From: an uncultured Elusimicrobia bacterium
Lineage (GTDB): Bacteria; Elusimicrobiota; Elusimicrobia; 2-01-FULL-59-12
Reading direction: 5' to 3'
NCBI GenBank assembly: GCA_963702895.1
Contig: OY969767.1
Coordinates: 2,432,001-2,496,000, forward strand
Length of the DNA stretch: 64,000 bases
The notes under the pieces are model-generated. The model ran no database searches. It worked only from the letters and a program-made list of their open reading frames with translations, and had not been told where the DNA came from. A program made the translations under genes and the position numbers. This document shows, one piece after another, positions 21,811 to 30,544 of the stretch. How positions within the stretch are numbered: the first letter of the stretch is position 1; each line of letters starts with the position of its first letter.

Positions 21811-22028
21811 GGGTCTTATTGTGACAAATTTTATTGTAGGATCAACTCTGTGATTCATCGAATTCTGGCAACGACGGCGGTCTGGAGTATCGCCTCGGTT
21901 GTGACGATGCGGCTGCGCCACCCGATGGTGGGGCTCACGCTGGGAGCGCTGGCTGCTTATCTAACCTTCCTCATCTGGACCCCGCGGCATCCGAAATTAC
22001 CCTACGACTCCAATGGAGGATCAAACTA

Positions 22029-22946
22029 ATGTGGTTTACGCTGGCTGTCATTTTCGTTGTCATCATGATGGCGCTCGGATACAAGACTTGGTTTTCTCCA
22101 CGAGAACAACTCTTTCACACGGATGTTTTCATTCGCAGCCTCGCCAAATACTTCGCCATCGGGCTTTCGGTGGCTCTCTTGGCGACCTTCATCACAGATT
22201 CTGTTGTGATCGTCCCAGCCGGCAATCGAGGGGTGGTCTTTGACCGATTTAAAGGGGTGCGGCCCGTTTCGCTCAATGAAGGCCTCAATATGATCCTGCC
22301 TATTGTTCAAGATGCGACGCTTTTTGAGGTGCGTGTCCAAAAGGTGGAGTTTGACGCAACAGCCGCCTCCAAAGACCTCCAAAGCGTGCGCACCAAAATC
22401 GCGCTCAACTTCCACCCGATCCCGGAGCAGGTCCCGGAAATCTATCGTGCCTACGGGCTTGGCTACACAGAAAAGATTGTGCATCCCGCTGTTCAGGAAG
22501 CCGTGAAATCCGTCACCGCCCGCTACACCGCCGAGGAACTGATCACGCGGCGCGAAGAGGTCAAGGGCCATATTCACGACCAGCTGGTCAGGCATGTGGG
22601 GGCGGCGAACTTAAAACTCGTGGAAACCTACATTACGGATTTTGAATTCTCATCGGAATTCGCGCACGCGATTGAGGCCAAGCAAGTGGCCGAGCAGCAG
22701 GCCTTCAAGGCCAGGCGCGACTTAGACAGAATTAAGATTGAGGCGGAGCAGCGTATCGCCCAAGCACGCGCTGAGGCGGAGGGTCTCAAGATGCAACGGG
22801 AAGCGATCACCCCGCAGCTGATTGAACTTCGGAAAATCGACGCCCAGAAACTCGCCATTGAGAAGTGGGATGGCCGCATGCCCCAAGTCATCATGGGACA
22901 GGGTTCTACCCCCTTCATCGACGTTAATCGTTTTATCCAAAAATAG
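22029..22946 (+). CDS. SPFH/prohibitin family membrane protein
   Basis: AASKDLQ, YTAEELITRR, AIEAKQVAEQ, IEKWDG. Confidence 0.93.
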   Translation: MWFTLAVIFVVIMMALGYKTWFSPREQLFHTDVFIRSLAKYFAIGLSVALLATFITDSVVIVPAGNRGVVFDRFKGVRPVSLNEGLNMILPIVQDATLFEVRVQKVEFDATAASKDLQSVRTKIALNFHPIPEQVPEIYRAYGLGYTEKIVHPAVQEAVKSVTARYTAEELITRREEVKGHIHDQLVRHVGAANLKLVETYITDFEFSSEFAHAIEAKQVAEQQAFKARRDLDRIKIEAEQRIAQARAEAEGLKMQREAITPQLIELRKIDAQKLAIEKWDGRMPQVIMGQGSTPFIDVNRFIQK

Positions 22947-22986
22947 CGAAAACTTCGTTCACGAAACGGCCGTGGAAGGCGCTGAG

Positions 22987-23472
22987 CTCCCGGACCTGGG
23001 CGCCGCACGACCGGCGCTCGCCCGACTATAGTGTGTCGGGTGAACCTAGACGAAGTGCAAAACTCCCGGACTAGGATTCGAGCGCCACACTTCGGGCGCT
23101 CGCCCGACTGTTGTGTGTCGGGTGAACCTAGACGAAGTGCAAAACTCCCGGACTAGGATTCGAGCGCCACACTTCGGGCGCTCGCCCGACTGTTGTGTGT
23201 CGGGTGAACCTAGACGAAGTGCAAAACTCCCGGACTAGGATTCGAGCGCCACACTTCGGGCGCTCGCCCGACTGTTGTGTGTCGGGCGAACCTAGACGAA
23301 GTGCAAAACTCCCGGACTAGGATTCGAGCGCCACACTTCGGGCGCTCGCCCGACTGTTGTGTGTCGGGCGAACCTAGACGAAGTGCAAAACTCCCGGACT
23401 AGGATTCGAGCGCCACACTTCGGGCGCTCGCCCGACTGTTGTGTGTCGGGCGAACCTAGACGAAGTGCAAAA
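22987..23472 (-). repeat. tRNA-linked tandem array: five 82-bp units (23063-23472) plus one degenerate 76-bp unit, each containing the tRNA-Gln T-arm and 3' acceptor strand with a 44-bp T-loop insert
   Basis: ctcccggactaggattcga starts at 23063, 23145, 23227, 23309, 23391 and 23473 (the tRNA itself): period exactly 82. Confidence 0.95.
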
Positions 23473-23543
23473 CTCCCGGACTAGGATTCGAACCTAGACT
23501 AAGGGATTCAGAGTCCCTCGTGCTACCGTTACACAATCCGGGA
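23473..23543 (-). tRNA. tRNA-Gln(CTG), CCA not encoded
   Basis: TCCCGGA acceptor stem, GGTA D-loop, AGGGA-CT-CTG-AA-TCCCT anticodon arm, CTAGG-TTCGAAT-CCTAG T-arm, 71 nt. Confidence 0.96.
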
Positions 23544-23561
23544 GTTTTGCACTCCATATGC

Positions 23562-23580
23562 CAGAGTCCCTCGTGCTACC
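23562..23580 (-). repeat. 19-bp duplicate of the tRNA-Gln D-loop-to-anticodon segment, upstream of the tRNA
   Basis: cagagtccctcgtgctacc is identical to 23509-23527. Confidence 0.9.
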
Positions 23581-23589
23581 TAACCTTTA

Positions 23590-23706
23590 TCCTTCGACTC
23601 CGCACGCCCTGAGCGCAATCGAAGGACTCGTTCCGCTTAGGATGGTTCGGCTCGTATCACTGATGGTGAGCGAGGTCGCCAAACATCTGGCGACCGAGTC
23701 GAACCA
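23590..23706. repeat. Cluster of REP-like palindromes (TTCGA...TCGAA type)
   Basis: tccttcga...tcgaagga (23590-23626) and tggttcggctcg...cgagtcgaacca (23643-23706) with inner hairpin ggtcgccaaacatctggcgacc. Confidence 0.7.
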
Positions 23707-23727: not shown

Positions 23728-24144
23728 TTATGGTTTGATGATTTCCGGTCCTTTGCTCACGCCGGGCGGGATGATTATATCAGGGCCTTTTTTCTCCGTC
23801 GCCTTTTCGGCGGACGCCTCGGACTTGCGGACTTCGTCAGCAAAGTTGAGCTCCAGGTCGGACACCAGGTTGTCGAGCATCTCCTGTTCTTTGACGCTCA
23901 AGTTTCCTTCCGTCTTTTCCTGAAGCATGCGCAAGAACTCAATCGAGATGCGGGCCTGATCGATGTCCTTTTCGATCTTCTGGGTCACCGGATGGGGCAC
24001 TTTCCCCAGCTGCGCCCAGGCGGCAGACCCCAAGGACATCACCAGCGTCAAAAACCGGTAATCGTCCACAACGCTATCAGGCGGACGAGCGCCTGTTGTG
24101 TGGCGCTCGGCTTCTCCTGGCATTTCAATTTTTTCTTCTGACAC
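23728..24144 (-). CDS. DUF1844-like protein
   Basis: F..LVMSLGSAAWAQLGK..HP...DIDQAR..I..L.ML.EKTEGNL..E...L; GTG 24144 preceded by AAGGAGG. Confidence 0.85.
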   Translation of the reverse strand: MSEEKIEMPGEAERHTTGARPPDSVVDDYRFLTLVMSLGSAAWAQLGKVPHPVTQKIEKDIDQARISIEFLRMLQEKTEGNLSVKEQEMLDNLVSDLELNFADEVRKSEASAEKATEKKGPDIIIPPGVSKGPEIIKP

Positions 24145-24160
24145 AACCACCCTCCTTGCC

Positions 24161-24244
24161 GTCACCCCAGCGGATTGTGAGCCGGGGTCCATCGTTATTG
24201 GCGTAGGCATGATGGATCCCCCACTTACAGCCGTGGGGGATGAC
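24161..24244. repeat. CGTC-type palindromic element (intergenic, no nested insert)
   Basis: gtcaccccagc...gccggggtccatc...gatggatccccc...gggggatgac. Confidence 0.85.
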
Positions 24245-24246
24245 AC

Positions 24247-25829: not shown

Positions 25830-28217
25830 ATGACCATCACACCGCATTTTCGCCACTACCTGAGCCTCTTTTTGATGGCGATGAGCATCATTGTCTGGGA
25901 AATTTTGCTCACGCGCATCTACAGTGTGGTACTGTTCTACCATTTTGCGTTTATGGCTGTTTCGATTGCGATGTTTGGGCTCTCTATGGGCGCCGCTTGC
26001 GTCGCCCTGCAAAAAGTGGATCGTTCTTCAGAGTCTCCCCTGTCCGACCGTATGCTGGCAGCGCTCGGCCTGCTCACAGGGGTTCTCATGGTGCTGGCGA
26101 TCACGTTGCAGTTAAGCTTGCCCATCCCGCCCACACGCAATCCGTGGCAGCTCTTTGGGGTACTTTTCCGAACGTACGTGCTTTCATCGCTTCCGTTTTT
26201 CCCGGCAGGGGCTTTTATATGTCTATTGCTTACGCGCTCCAAGCAAGTGGGACGGCTCTATGCTGTGGATTTGATCGCCGCAGGGCTTGGATGCGCGCTG
26301 ATCCCCGTTCTTCTTTCAGTCTTCGGAGGCCCTGGGGCCACCCTGGTGGCAGCAGCGCTGGCCGGCGGTTCTGCTCTTTGTTTTCTCCCAAGGAAATCAC
26401 GCGCGTCCAGGGTGGCATGGCTTTTGGTCGTAGGGCTCTTGCTGGGGGCCTTGATCAACCGATCAGCCCAAGTCCTGCGCGTGCGTTGGCGGCACAACGG
26501 CCCGGTTCCTATCCCTTTATTTGAAAAATGGAACTCCTTTTCGCGCATTATGATCCAGCCGGGCGGGTCCAGCAATCTGAATTGGGGAGTTGAAGAGACC
26601 TGGAGACGTCAACTGACGCCGGCTCCTCAACTTCAGCTTGAAATTGACTCCGGGGCCGGGACCGCCATCACGCATTTTGACGGGAGACTGGAACCTCTTC
26701 GTTTTTTACAGTACGACATCACGTCGTTTGCTCATTACTTGCGGCCCCAATCCAAAGTGCTCATCATCGGGCCGGGCGGCGGCCGCGATGTGTTGGCGGC
26801 CTTAAGCTTCAAACAGGTCTCCGTGCATGCCGTTGAAGTCAACCCCTCTATTCTATACGCCGTCAATGACGTCTTCGGTGATTTCACGGGCCGCTTGAAC
26901 AAACGCCCCGACGTTCACTTCGTGGTTGATGAAGGCCGGAGCTACTTACATCACGAACAACAACCCTTTGACATCATCCAAGCCTCCCTTGTGGATACGG
27001 TGGCGGCCACGGCCTCTGGCGCCTATTCCTTTGTCGAAAACGGCCTCTACACCGTTGAAGCATGGCGGCTTTTTCTCCATCGGCTCACGCCGCGGGGCCT
27101 TCTGTCCTTTTCACGTTGGTATTTTGGGTCCACGACTTGGCCCGTGGAAGTGTGCCGCACGGTAGCGCTCGCCGCTGAAGCCCTCCGCCAGGAAAGCAAA
27201 AGACCTCAAGACCACATTCTGGTCATCCGCAACAGCAATTTGCGGCCGCCGAAAGAAGGCATCGCGACGGTCCTGGTCTCACGTGAACCCTTTTCATCTT
27301 CGGACTGGGCCAAAGCTTTTGAAACATGCCGGCGGCTCCATTGCGAAATCGCTCTGGCCAAGGGACAAGGGGAACCTCTGCTCGCGTCCATCGTCGGGAC
27401 CACCAACCCGCGCGCGCTGTACGCCGAACTTCCCTTGGACATCTCACCGCCCTCGGACAACAAACCTTATTTCTTTTTCCATGCAAGACTGCGGGATATT
27501 CTTCGGTTTCGTCAGAGCCCGCAATTCGGGGCCTCAGGCTTCAACTTGCCCGCCGTCCGCATTCTGGTCGAGTTAAGTTTGATTACGCTTGCTCTGTCCG
27601 CCCTCATGGTGGTTTGGCCCTACCGCATCCTAAGTCGCAGAACGTCTTGGGCGCCCGTGCCTGCTCGACGGTCTGTTGGGATGCCTTTCTATTTTGGACT
27701 GATCGGTCTTGCTTTTATGTTCCTTGAAATTGGGTGGATGCAGCGCTTCAGCCTTTTCCTTGGTCACCCAACCTATGGGTTCACTGTGATATTGCTGGGA
27801 CTTCTCGTCATGAGCGGTCTCGGGAGTTGGTGGGTCACTTCTACGAAGCTTTTGAGCGACCAATCGCGTCGGTGGATTCCATTGCTCCTCATTCCACTTC
27901 TGCTCATCTCCAATAGGGTGGTCCAGATATTTTTGCCACAGTGGATGGGATCTCCCCTGGAGGTCCGCATTCTAATTACGCTGCTTTCGATCAGTCCTCC
28001 GGCGATCGTGATGGGCATGTTTTTCCCCCTGGCCATGGCGCCTGCTCAGCGCTGGATGGCGGACCGGGTAGGATGGCTATGGGCCATCAACGGCGCCCTG
28101 TCGGTGACAGGCTCCGTGCTCGCGATGGTTTGTTCGTTGGCGTTCGGCATCAGCGGGACTCTAATGCTGGGAACGGGCGCTTATTTCTTGGCTGCGATCC
28201 TGCTTTTACTCCTCTAA
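25830..28217 (+). CDS. Membrane protein fused to a spermidine synthase-like SAM-binding domain
   Basis: TM blocks at both ends; VLIIGPGGGRDV, VEVNP, DEGRSY, DNKPYFF. Confidence 0.8.
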   Translation: MTITPHFRHYLSLFLMAMSIIVWEILLTRIYSVVLFYHFAFMAVSIAMFGLSMGAACVALQKVDRSSESPLSDRMLAALGLLTGVLMVLAITLQLSLPIPPTRNPWQLFGVLFRTYVLSSLPFFPAGAFICLLLTRSKQVGRLYAVDLIAAGLGCALIPVLLSVFGGPGATLVAAALAGGSALCFLPRKSRASRVAWLLVVGLLLGALINRSAQVLRVRWRHNGPVPIPLFEKWNSFSRIMIQPGGSSNLNWGVEETWRRQLTPAPQLQLEIDSGAGTAITHFDGRLEPLRFLQYDITSFAHYLRPQSKVLIIGPGGGRDVLAALSFKQVSVHAVEVNPSILYAVNDVFGDFTGRLNKRPDVHFVVDEGRSYLHHEQQPFDIIQASLVDTVAATASGAYSFVENGLYTVEAWRLFLHRLTPRGLLSFSRWYFGSTTWPVEVCRTVALAAEALRQESKRPQDHILVIRNSNLRPPKEGIATVLVSREPFSSSDWAKAFETCRRLHCEIALAKGQGEPLLASIVGTTNPRALYAELPLDISPPSDNKPYFFFHARLRDILRFRQSPQFGASGFNLPAVRILVELSLITLALSALMVVWPYRILSRRTSWAPVPARRSVGMPFYFGLIGLAFMFLEIGWMQRFSLFLGHPTYGFTVILLGLLVMSGLGSWWVTSTKLLSDQSRRWIPLLLIPLLLISNRVVQIFLPQWMGSPLEVRILITLLSISPPAIVMGMFFPLAMAPAQRWMADRVGWLWAINGALSVTGSVLAMVCSLAFGISGTLMLGTGAYFLAAILLLLL

Positions 28218-30544
28218 GCCAATAATCCCCACGTGTGAAGGAGGTCCCCTTCATGCCGCCACCGGAACCCGATGTCGGTGCGGTAGAACATGTTGGGGAT
28301 GATGATGGTTTTGACGCGGGAGTAGGCCTCGCGGTGGGCTTCTTCCATGGTGGACCCGGAACCGGTGATCACGAGCGCATACCCGTCGCGTCCCGTGATC
28401 TTCCAGTCGCCGTCTTCGAGTTTGACGTCGCCAAGATGGATCCCGTCCATCCCAGGCTTGGTGAATATCACGACCGCGTCCTCGGAAAACTTGCGGAACG
28501 TATCCAAGTCGGCAAAGGGCCAAGGAGGAAGCGCGATGACCACCCCCACCTGAAATCCTTTTTGTGTTTTGAGGTTATAGGGCTTTTTGTTAGCAAGCGC
28601 GTAGAGAAATTCTCCCCACGGGCTCTGGATGCCCTCCATTTGGATGCTGACCGTCGGGTAGCCAAAACGTGGGGTGATCTCCAAGGGGTAGACGTTGCGG
28701 GCCGTGGCGATGCAATTGATATCAAAATAACCCACGTAGCCTGCTTCTTTGAGGCGCGGCACCATTTTCTCGATCGTTTCGCGGTAGAGCCGGCTGGGTC
28801 CCGTCCAAAACATCGAGGTATTTCCACACCACAAAGGCTTTCCATTTCTCCTAACATAGAGCGTGTGATAAGGAACTGTGACACAGTAGACACGCCCTTT
28901 GTAATCAACCACGGTCGTATCTCTGCGGTCAAGCCACGCGTTTGTCTTTTGGATCCTTTCGATCACTTCGTAGCAGGGATGGACCTTTTGAAAGACTCTC
29001 GTTCCGATCTTGCCTCCACGACGTAAGCGCCGTTTGACGATTCCGACACGACCCATCTTGAGAAGCAGTTCTTGGACGTCGTCCGCTAATCGAGGAGAAG
29101 AGGTGTAGTAAATTCGAAAACCGGTGCGCTGTTTATTCCCGTCCCCTAAACACATATGGTCGAAGAGAATCGCTAATTGGCGAGGGGATTGCTCCTTGTA
29201 TTCCGAGGGAATATATTTCGTGAGCGCGTGACCGAAAGGCTTAAGATACGCCCACAAGCGCTTGTCGTAGCATTTCCAGCCTCCTTTCACCTTTCTAAAA
29301 CGGAATGGCAACCTTTCAATCGTCTCTTGAACGGCACGCGCCTTCCGGGCATTCACTTGAGAGATGCCGACCTGATAAGATTTCTCGGAAGTCCAGCCTT
29401 CCGCGAGCCAGAGCCCAAGGAATGCCAGCCAATGGTCCATCGCCATGAGCAAGGGCTGGAACTTGTCCCTGCTTAGGCCATGCCCAGAACGTCCTCTTAA
29501 TGCAGGCAACGAAAACACGGCTTCTTCCTTGCCTTTCCAACAACCCGAGCGCGGCACCACAAATTGGTGGGGAAGATTTTTCGCTTTCACAAAGGTCCAC
29601 TGTTTTTTCTTGCGATATCGCGTGGCTTCCTGGCCGAACATCTGGTGGTCGAGCGTCACAAGCAGATCGGTTGCTCGATTGCGAATACGGACCATTTTCT
29701 TGTGATGATCGAACTGAACAACAGCGGATGGTCTATGATATTCGATCTCATCGGACTCGGGGTTCACACTGGCAAAGCGATCCTCCAGAGAAACATCCCG
29801 AAATCTTTTCCAACCGCCCTGCGTAAGCACTTCCGTCTCCTCGTCATAACAGCCCATCTCTCCTGTAGAGGGGCCGATTTCACCGGCAAAGAGTTTCTTG
29901 TGCTCGAAGTTGATGCAGACGGGCATGATGAACTCTTGTCCATTGAAGAAACCACCGACCGCAACTTCAATACCTGAGACAAACTTTTGGATTTGCAGAC
30001 GGCGCACTTTGGATCCCCAGCCGACTTTGTACCGGTCTAAAATCGCGACGACGTCTTTCCCGTCTTCTTCATGACCCACGAAAGAAAGGACTTTGTCGTT
30101 TTGCGCTTTGCCGGAGGGTTTCACCACGTAGCGGGCAGGATTTTTTATAACAAACTTGGTCGCTTCATCGAAGGAATCGAATTCCCAGGAGTCCGGGATC
30201 GTGAGGCCCACGGCCTTCATCTCCTGAGCTCCGAAGTCGCGGTCAAGCTCCAAGCGATCTGAATAAGAAGATCCTCCGACCACGGGCTTGCCTTCTTTGC
30301 GCAGACGGTCCGCGATCGTCCCGAACGCGGCATCATCGATGATGATGAGGTCCGCCCAGTCTTTATGCGATTCCCATTCGTCCACTTTATCGAGAAATCC
30401 ATCATAGAGCACACGGTCGGCTTTGGACTGCACGAACCATTTGACGTTGTAGCCTTCGAGTTTGAGACGGTAAGCGAGGTCGCCCGCACAGGCCTCAAAG
30501 GAGAGGAAGAGAATATTTTTCGGTTTTCCGTTGCCGTTTGCCAT
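28214..30544 (-). CDS. Divergent phosphoribosylamine--glycine ligase-like (PurD-like) ATP-grasp enzyme interrupted by an intein (432 aa after splicing)
   Basis: YVVKPSG, EHKK...GPSTGEMG, LEITPRFGYP; lacks the canonical PurD GSGGREH N-terminal motif. Confidence 0.8.
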   Translation of the reverse strand: MANGNGKPKNILFLSFEACAGDLAYRLKLEGYNVKWFVQSKADRVLYDGFLDKVDEWESHKDWADLIIIDDAAFGTIADRLRKEGKPVVGGSSYSDRLELDRDFGAQEMKAVGLTIPDSWEFDSFDEATKFVIKNPARYVVKPSGKAQNDKVLSFVGHEEDGKDVVAILDRYKVGWGSKVRRLQIQKFVSGIEVAVGGFFNGQEFIMPVCINFEHKKLFAGEIGPSTGEMGCYDEETEVLTQGGWKRFRDVSLEDRFASVNPESDEIEYHRPSAVVQFDHHKKMVRIRNRATDLLVTLDHQMFGQEATRYRKKKQWTFVKAKNLPHQFVVPRSGCWKGKEEAVFSLPALRGRSGHGLSRDKFQPLLMAMDHWLAFLGLWLAEGWTSEKSYQVGISQVNARKARAVQETIERLPFRFRKVKGGWKCYDKRLWAYLKPFGHALTKYIPSEYKEQSPRQLAILFDHMCLGDGNKQRTGFRIYYTSSPRLADDVQELLLKMGRVGIVKRRLRRGGKIGTRVFQKVHPCYEVIERIQKTNAWLDRRDTTVVDYKGRVYCVTVPYHTLYVRRNGKPLWCGNTSMFWTGPSRLYRETIEKMVPRLKEAGYVGYFDINCIATARNVYPLEITPRFGYPTVSIQMEGIQSPWGEFLYALANKKPYNLKTQKGFQVGVVIALPPWPFADLDTFRKFSEDAVVIFTKPGMDGIHLGDVKLEDGDWKITGRDGYALVITGSGSTMEEAHREAYSRVKTIIIPNMFYRTDIGFRWRHEGDLLHTWGLLA
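28820..29851 (-). mobile_element. Intein with LAGLIDADG homing endonuclease domain, 344 aa (residues 232-575)
   Basis: Block A CYDEETEVLT, block B VTLDH, LAGLIDADG-like FLGLWLAEG and FDHMCLGDG, block F YKGRVYCVTV, C-terminal WCGN followed by Thr. Confidence 0.95.

Follow-up and report, generated by a model that had tools for sequence, protein, structure and literature searches.

The origin and spread of REP-like palindromes are a long-open question. IS630-type MITEs duplicate a TA target, have fixed terminal repeats and depend on an IS630 helper, and the E. coli tyrT repeats (rtT RNA) are tandem repeats with the tRNA 3′ end downstream of the gene. Integrase islands at tRNA genes, including those with the T-loop as sublocation, are described as leaving an intact gene plus a duplicated 3′ part, with the oldest end farthest away (bioRxiv 10.1101/2020.11.02.365908). 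REP, BIME and REPIN sequences are described as inverted doublets of short palindromes with compensatory stem changes, which can amplify in tandem and occasionally insert in frame into genes (PMC3733652; bioRxiv 10.1101/2024.07.17.603846). For the Ssn enzymes, which have a single domain, binding to an oriented hairpin of single-stranded DNA is described, with cleavage a few bases upstream; the activity described in the main text is nicking of single-stranded DNA, and insertion is not part of that description (Chenal et al. 2025, PMC11893778). Ssn-type nucleases have so far merely been suspected of making their own repeats.

Here, we analyze an array of 82-bp units next to an intact tRNA-Gln(CTG) gene in a stretch of 64,000 nucleotides of an Elusimicrobia genome (hereafter the window; its genome is G000). 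We consider it probable that the array arose when a spare tRNA-Gln 3′ end with an insert in the T-loop was amplified in tandem, and that it is likely a gene-less remnant of a selfish cassette of GIY-YIG nuclease and hairpin that lives on tRNA genes. The array itself is most likely a by-product.

Like Ssn/NTS, where the nuclease measures about 80-100 aa, the system pairs a small GIY-YIG gene of one domain with an oriented DNA hairpin of its own. The insert has the stem and loop lengths of the dRS3 palindrome (6-bp stem, 8-nt loop), and in both systems many gene-less hairpin copies are present genome-wide (PMC11893778). However, the hairpin sequence described there is unlike that of the insert, and the partner nuclease lies across a 98/99 branch from the SRM-flanked genes. 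NTS/SRM hairpins flank the gene on both sides, whereas here a different hairpin lies inside tRNA copies. The main text of the Ssn/NTS paper has 0 occurrences of “tRNA”, and tRNA targeting, end duplication and a target-copying rule are not described in it (PMC11893778). G000 also carries two Ssn-like GIY-YIG genes with SRM-type arms (G000:C1:543339-543560 and 554279-554500), and sequences related to these arms are found inside metH as well as in the window (e.g., 24155-24245).

The likeness to REP, BIME and REPIN sequences extends to all four traits listed above. As in REPIN-RAYT systems, the doublets are inverted and dispersed, and those of G000 have one arrangement only (54 doublets; 54/54 core pairs sense-then-antisense, 0 reversed); however, a linked RAYT (Y1 HUH) would be expected, and no intact RAYT was found in G000. 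A REPIN has a GTAG/CGTC tag before the stem, whereas the flank of the insert consists of the target dinucleotide and T-loop bases, with no tag, and the 2-bp target duplication, the inverted middle copy and the T-loop preference are the insert's own. The available text of a survey of GTAG/CGTC REPs does not mention GIY (PMC3733652). An IS630-type MITE is not matched either: the insert targets CG or CA/TG, its ends vary, and G000, G001, G005 and G007 have no match to PF13358. Integrase islands share the intact gene, the duplicated 3′ part and the distal position of the oldest end as far as they are described, but the array has only a trailer and the hairpin pair between repeats, the copied T-loop is interrupted, and non-tRNA sites are hit too. 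The suggestion in an earlier note on this DNA that the units are integration decoys is therefore unsupported, as neither cargo nor integrase lies between the repeats. That note had also likened the array to the tyrT repeats; the architecture, with a tRNA 3′ end in downstream tandem repeats, is indeed common to both, but the likeness goes no further, as the array is not kept in relatives (0/7), is interrupted by a dispersed element and has counterparts at many tRNA genes. A search of the open-access literature, supplements aside, gave no account of T-loop hairpin pairs or of small GIY-YIG cassettes lodged at tRNA genes. Thus, this appears to be a nuclease-hairpin system akin to Ssn/NTS and REP/RAYT yet outside both, and apparently an undescribed variant.

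The array downstream of tRNA-Gln(CTG)

The intact tRNA-Gln(CTG) gene lies on the minus strand at 23472-23544 (ARAGORN and Rfam), with gltX and a DUF1844 gene upstream; nucleotide 1 is at 23543, the discriminator G73 at 23473, and CCA is not encoded. The 5′ leader arm (23544-23555, minus strand) is complementary to G73 and the 11-nt trailer (23462-23472, minus strand), giving an acceptor stem of 21 bp. Upstream, at 23562-23580 on the same strand, 19 nt of the tRNA (nt 18-36, from the D loop to the anticodon) are present a second time. Along this strand, the end of the tRNA itself and its trailer take up 38 nt (23499-23462); five 82-nt units come next, spanning 23461-23052, and then a decayed sixth that ends at 22987. 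TRF reports a tandem repeat at 23013-23491 with a period of 82, 5.8 copies and 99% matches. Each unit contains tRNA nt 46-73 (27 nt), interrupted within the T-loop by a 44-nt insert and followed by the 11-nt trailer, which recurs at the end of units 1-5. Unit 1 (23380-23461) comprises tRNA nt 46-57 with G at position 57, the hairpin pair (23407-23450), nt 58-73 and the trailer; within the pair, hairpin H1 occupies 23450-23431, the inverted middle dinucleotide 23430-23429, hairpin H2 23428-23409 and the duplicated target dinucleotide 23408-23407. The insert folds into two hairpins, each with a 6-bp stem and an 8-nt loop (z −5.5 for a 50-nt piece).

Units 2 (23298-23379) and 3 (23216-23297) have the same sequence as unit 1, and units 4 (23134-23215) and 5 (23052-23133) have A at position 57 (plus-strand T at 23205 and 23123, respectively), which is the sole difference among units 1-5. 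Unit 6 (22987-23051) has unchanged stems and a short deletion in the 3′ strand of the T-stem. It differs from unit 5 at 8 of 55 nt, with five of the differences at variable loop positions, and its loops likewise depart from those of units 1-5 mainly at such positions. All of these units are on the minus strand. The earlier note had the anatomy right, namely an 82-bp array built from the tRNA-Gln 3′ end with an interrupted T-loop, a 44-nt double hairpin per unit, plus-strand C at 23287, 23369 and 23451 and T at 23041, 23123 and 23205, and a decayed distal unit; the pairing of trailer with leader, the 19-nt upstream copy and the different trailer of the distal unit are additions to it.

The array was read from an assembly in which the genome is one gap-free contig of 2.72 Mb. 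In the independent short-read run X1, a contig of 112 nt (82+30) corresponds to 23059-23170 with zero differences; it extends 30 nt beyond one full period and so shows the head-to-tail junction independently of the assembly. A second X1 contig runs through tRNA-Gln into unit 1, of which it covers the initial 12 nt, and shows two differences. Public runs gave low-depth contigs only, none of them spanning the whole array, so that the copy number rests on the assembly. Altogether, the array after the intact tRNA-Gln(CTG) gene is confirmed as real, with five 82-bp units and a decayed sixth in the assembly.

The array is absent from the orthologous tRNA-Gln locus in 7/7 readable loci of the family; among them, G003, of the same genus, has an identical tRNA-Gln and arsC 25 nt downstream. 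The trailer of the distal unit (22979-22986, minus strand) differs from that of units 1-5 and is of the type found in the family, likely ancestral, with 9 nt identical to the trailer of the intact tRNA-Gln of the metagenome relative L064 and a 7/8 match with G003. The simplest history, as we infer it, is that an old 3′ end with the insert would have been pushed away, a new end with a trailer fitting the present leader installed, and one insert-bearing unit then amplified beside tRNA-Gln. Growth from the tRNA end, as proposed in the earlier note, gains indirect support from the family-type distal trailer, but the C/T block gives no direction and a test for displaced copies that keep CCA was null (2 versus 2 discordant among 35 pairs). 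Amplification does not need the hairpin pair, because the array at tRNA-Val(GAC) (G000:C1 about 1171000-1171700) has five 120-bp 3′-end units with mirrored 7-mer repeats and no hairpin pair. The units are identical at tRNA-Phe, and tRNA-Gly(CCC) has two 82-bp units with different inserts. An SPFH/Band 7 gene and ~200 nt (window 21922-22978) separate tRNA-Gln from arsC, to which it is adjacent in G003; this segment is a separate gain or loss.

Insertion rule and distribution of the hairpin pair

The halves of the insert are 20-nt hairpins, the second in inverse orientation, and they follow the rule xy - H1 - rc(xy) - H2 - xy, in which xy is a dinucleotide of the target. In G000, 23/29 pairs with a 2-nt gap obey this rule, with 0 in 3 shuffles. 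In metagenomes, where the search pattern left the flanks free and two of 74 distinct sites were dropped for poor stems, it is obeyed at 65/72 well-paired sites, including 46/46 in T-loops. The dinucleotide is the one found at nt 56-57 of the neighboring intact tRNA in 51/54 sites (38 CG, 13 CA), although these sites are not independent; the array's own A57 units are among the three mismatches. It takes nearly two values only (CG 71, CA/TG 25, CC/GG 1). Spacers of pairs in G000 measure 2, 4, 5 or 6 nt; pairs with a 2-nt spacer also follow the rule when they lie within REP-like arms, of which empty forms are common. A second, decayed hairpin pair in the DUF1844 gene (24063-24107, minus strand) is a 45-nt in-frame insertion near the gene start with duplication of a CG target. 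Three relatives without the insert have a single CG there, and the 2-bp target duplication is thus seen directly. Together, these observations show that the hairpin pair was inserted with duplication of a 2-bp target and that its middle dinucleotide is the reverse complement of that target.

The inserts vary in sequence. The outer two base pairs of the stems are variable, yet complementary in 191/194 monomers; loop position 7 is C in 152/156 monomers, though the search did not specify it; and of 43 monomers at CA sites, 21 are also found in identical form at CG sites. Because 95 of the 97 rule-following pairs are distinct, the inserts look assembled in place. A fixed element copied between sites would fit these data poorly, and assembly at the target would fit better. 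At the array, the end of the trailer matches the H2 loop at 7/8 positions, from which the idea arose that loop bases are copied from flanking DNA; this idea was rejected, as 14/78 compares with a shuffled mean of 10.3 and 18/200 shuffles scored as high. We also discarded the insert as a removable intron because no whole tRNA with the insert was present among the loci inspected. Within tRNA genes, the pair was seen solely in partial copies adjoining an intact gene.

A profile search found the insert family behind many other tRNA genes. G000 has 30 T-loop sites, all 30 within 900 nt of a tRNA on the same strand; their nearest neighbors are 17/47 tRNA genes, and two of the sites are tRNA-Pro copies nearer tRNA-Arg. 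Monomers in G000 number 167 matches in 85 clusters. With free flanks, the exact pattern matched 16 loci in species genomes, 15 of them in Elusimicrobiota and the last one poorly paired, 83 stretches in metagenomes and 2/301 genomes of a phylum sample; viral contigs had 0 hairpin-pair matches and 0 confirmed nuclease loci. The earlier note's reading of the array as an amplification scar of a double-hairpin process is thus supported, and is extended by the insertion rule, the census and the full and empty sites.

Several related sequences were also observed. A gene-less inverted-repeat remnant in the window (23644-23705) resembles the ends of a GIY-YIG cassette before tRNA-Gln(TTG) and contains a single hairpin of the family (23675-23694). 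In dead copies of tRNA-Ala, -Thr, -Arg and -Pro in G000 and in loci L175-L183, a single hairpin replaces the anticodon arm, and tRNA-Ala cassettes of other families carry a related short-loop hairpin. A second family of hairpin pairs, with 10-12-nt loops, is found in tRNA-Met and tRNA-Pro copies of G000 and in L075, L078 and L099; such a pair either separates T-loop positions 56 and 57, with no duplication of the target, or lies in the anticodon loop.

A candidate GIY-YIG nuclease and rival explanations

Several lines of evidence connect the inserts to a GIY-YIG subclade. First, the partner genes encode single-domain proteins of 71-86 aa that score over the cut-off for PF01541 and have invariant Y, G, R, EH and RE residues, and 5/8 small GIY-YIG genes in G000 lie within 350 nt of a tRNA (22, 31, 50, 133 and 343 nt), the second gene at the Asn locus among them. 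Behind tRNA-Asn in G000 there are two units of the form trailer, GIY-YIG gene, T arm with hairpin pair and acceptor end, and the unit with the gene is present in both G000 and G007. At the orthologous tRNA-Gln of L064, the same gene-bearing anatomy is found, the copy begins at nt 46 as in the array, and the stop codon of the nuclease gene lies inside the copied nt 46-51. The window's unit is therefore best read as an L064-type cassette that would have lost its gene. Second, in a tree of 47 rows the partner proteins form a short subclade (97/94) within a K[ST]GxG group, which is split (98/99) from a clade (100/100) whose genes have SRM flanks; the latter genes, taken from the genomes under study, serve as proxies for the Ssn (cd10448) clade. 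In an independent search of 251 genomes of the class, the six best matches of the L064 protein all lie beside tRNA pieces with these hairpins, and the next eight are tRNA-Ala cassettes with a different hairpin, one of which has a pair (1/8). Third, pattern matches, counted on both strands, number 5-49 in the four family genomes that have the subclade and 0-1 in the seven that lack it (Fisher 0.003), in a sample of 11 related, partly incomplete genomes (73-98%) and with a subclade profile built in part from loci located via the hairpin.

The association has clear bounds. In 401 phylum genomes the profile found no additional close subclade member; in the wider clade, 16/23 loci abut a same-strand tRNA and 0/23 have the hairpin core; and outside G000, 64/76 rule-following pairs have no GIY-YIG gene within 700 nt, whereas in the other 12 the neighbors are all K[ST]GxG-group members or fragments. 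A protein homolog search returned 2 sequences only, and a PDB sequence search returned UPF0213 proteins (E 9e-7) and a weak match to SLX1. Searches for RAYT, IS630 and resolvase genes gave no better partner. Altogether, co-location and co-occurrence make the GIY-YIG subclade (~73 aa) the likely enzyme of the inserts.

We tentatively suggest a way in which such an enzyme could work. GIY-YIG homing endonucleases are described as leaving 2-nt 3′ overhangs (PMC3664794). The ~73-residue nuclease would bind its 20-nt hairpin in single-stranded DNA and then cut, making a staggered break with 2-nt 3′ overhangs at the CG or CA of the T-loop. Each 3′ end would receive one hairpin, fold back and copy two target bases, and the two ends would anneal via the copied bases. 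Survivors would be chromosomes that keep or regain an intact tRNA end, and the resulting 38-bp direct repeat would expand by unequal recombination or slippage, with the newest units nearest the tRNA. In a bolder reading, possible though less likely than not, insertion would proceed without a transposase, each insert would be built anew, duplication of the end would save the tRNA genes, and fold-back copying of this kind may also have produced the 10-bp leader-trailer stems on a third of the tRNA genes of G000. Because the target is written into the insert three times and the candidate enzyme has 73 residues, oligonucleotides suffice to test the mechanism. If correct, it would bring to two the classes of small nucleases specific for hairpins and would account for the pseudo-tRNA clutter and tandem arrays in these genomes.

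An explanation that we regard as unlikely is that the hairpin pair is a miniature element moved by a RAYT/Y1 HUH enzyme, an IS630-type transposase or a serine recombinase, with the GIY-YIG genes merely sharing tRNA loci. IS630-type elements typically duplicate 2 bp, and strand exchange by serine recombinases spans 2 nt, so that the 2-bp duplication of the insert suits either; inverted hairpin doublets look like REPINs, most pairs have no GIY-YIG gene nearby (the 64/76 outside G000), and Y1 and resolvase matches occur in 10/11 family genomes. However, the presence of Y1 and resolvase genes does not track the pairs across these genomes: G000, the richest in pairs, has one weak partial Y1 match (PF01797, 55 positions), and the four genomes searched for IS630 DDE_3 (PF13358) lack it. 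Moreover, in a copied element the middle would not vary with the target, nor would the sequence be nearly unique to each site. Still less plausible is an assembly artefact, with only one or two real units; this we consider extremely unlikely. No public run covers the full array, but against it stand the single gap-free contig, the block-wise distribution of a single difference, the distinct distal unit, the junction in run X1 and the tandem units with different inserts at other tRNAs.

It is also very unlikely, although less so than an artefact, that the units are transcribed together with the tRNA and maintained because they serve as small RNAs, protein-binding sponges or spare integration sites. 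The tRNA strand has no terminator-like site from the tRNA to the end of the array, and read-through is therefore plausible and the units may be transcribed; the five terminator-like matches all fall on the other strand, where they correspond to the insert, and a promoter scan found none. The units fold stably, and in the predicted fold of tRNA-Gln with three units the 5′ strand pairs with the last copy, each unit being a second potential partner for the leader and 5′ strand. The C at loop position 7 is conserved, but recognition of a DNA hairpin explains this equally well. Because the units have neither a D arm nor a 5′ acceptor strand, they do not mimic a tRNA, and the tRNA-like small RNAs envisaged in the earlier note are unlikely for this reason and because of the absence of the array at 7/7 family loci, G003 with its identical tRNA included. 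Furthermore, the same insert is found in frame in a protein gene and within REP arms. We therefore favor a remnant of a nuclease-hairpin cassette over a functional array.

Leader-trailer stems and other features

In 15/47 tRNA genes of G000, leader and trailer lengthen the acceptor stem by 8-17 perfect pairs, nine of them by exactly 10, with none in 2000 shuffles; the example in the window is at 23462-23555. Such stems are also present in L002, L007, L008, L064, L108 and L112. The leader and trailer arms of tRNA-Gln differ in sequence between relatives and keep their complementarity. Leader-trailer pairing is described as slowing E. coli RNase P (PMC9433436). Just downstream of tRNA-Ala(GGC) (G000:C1 1700842) lies an extended 4-nt repeat. 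Elsewhere in the window, a purD-like ORF of 776 aa (28214-30544) appears to contain what we take to be an intein-like insert.
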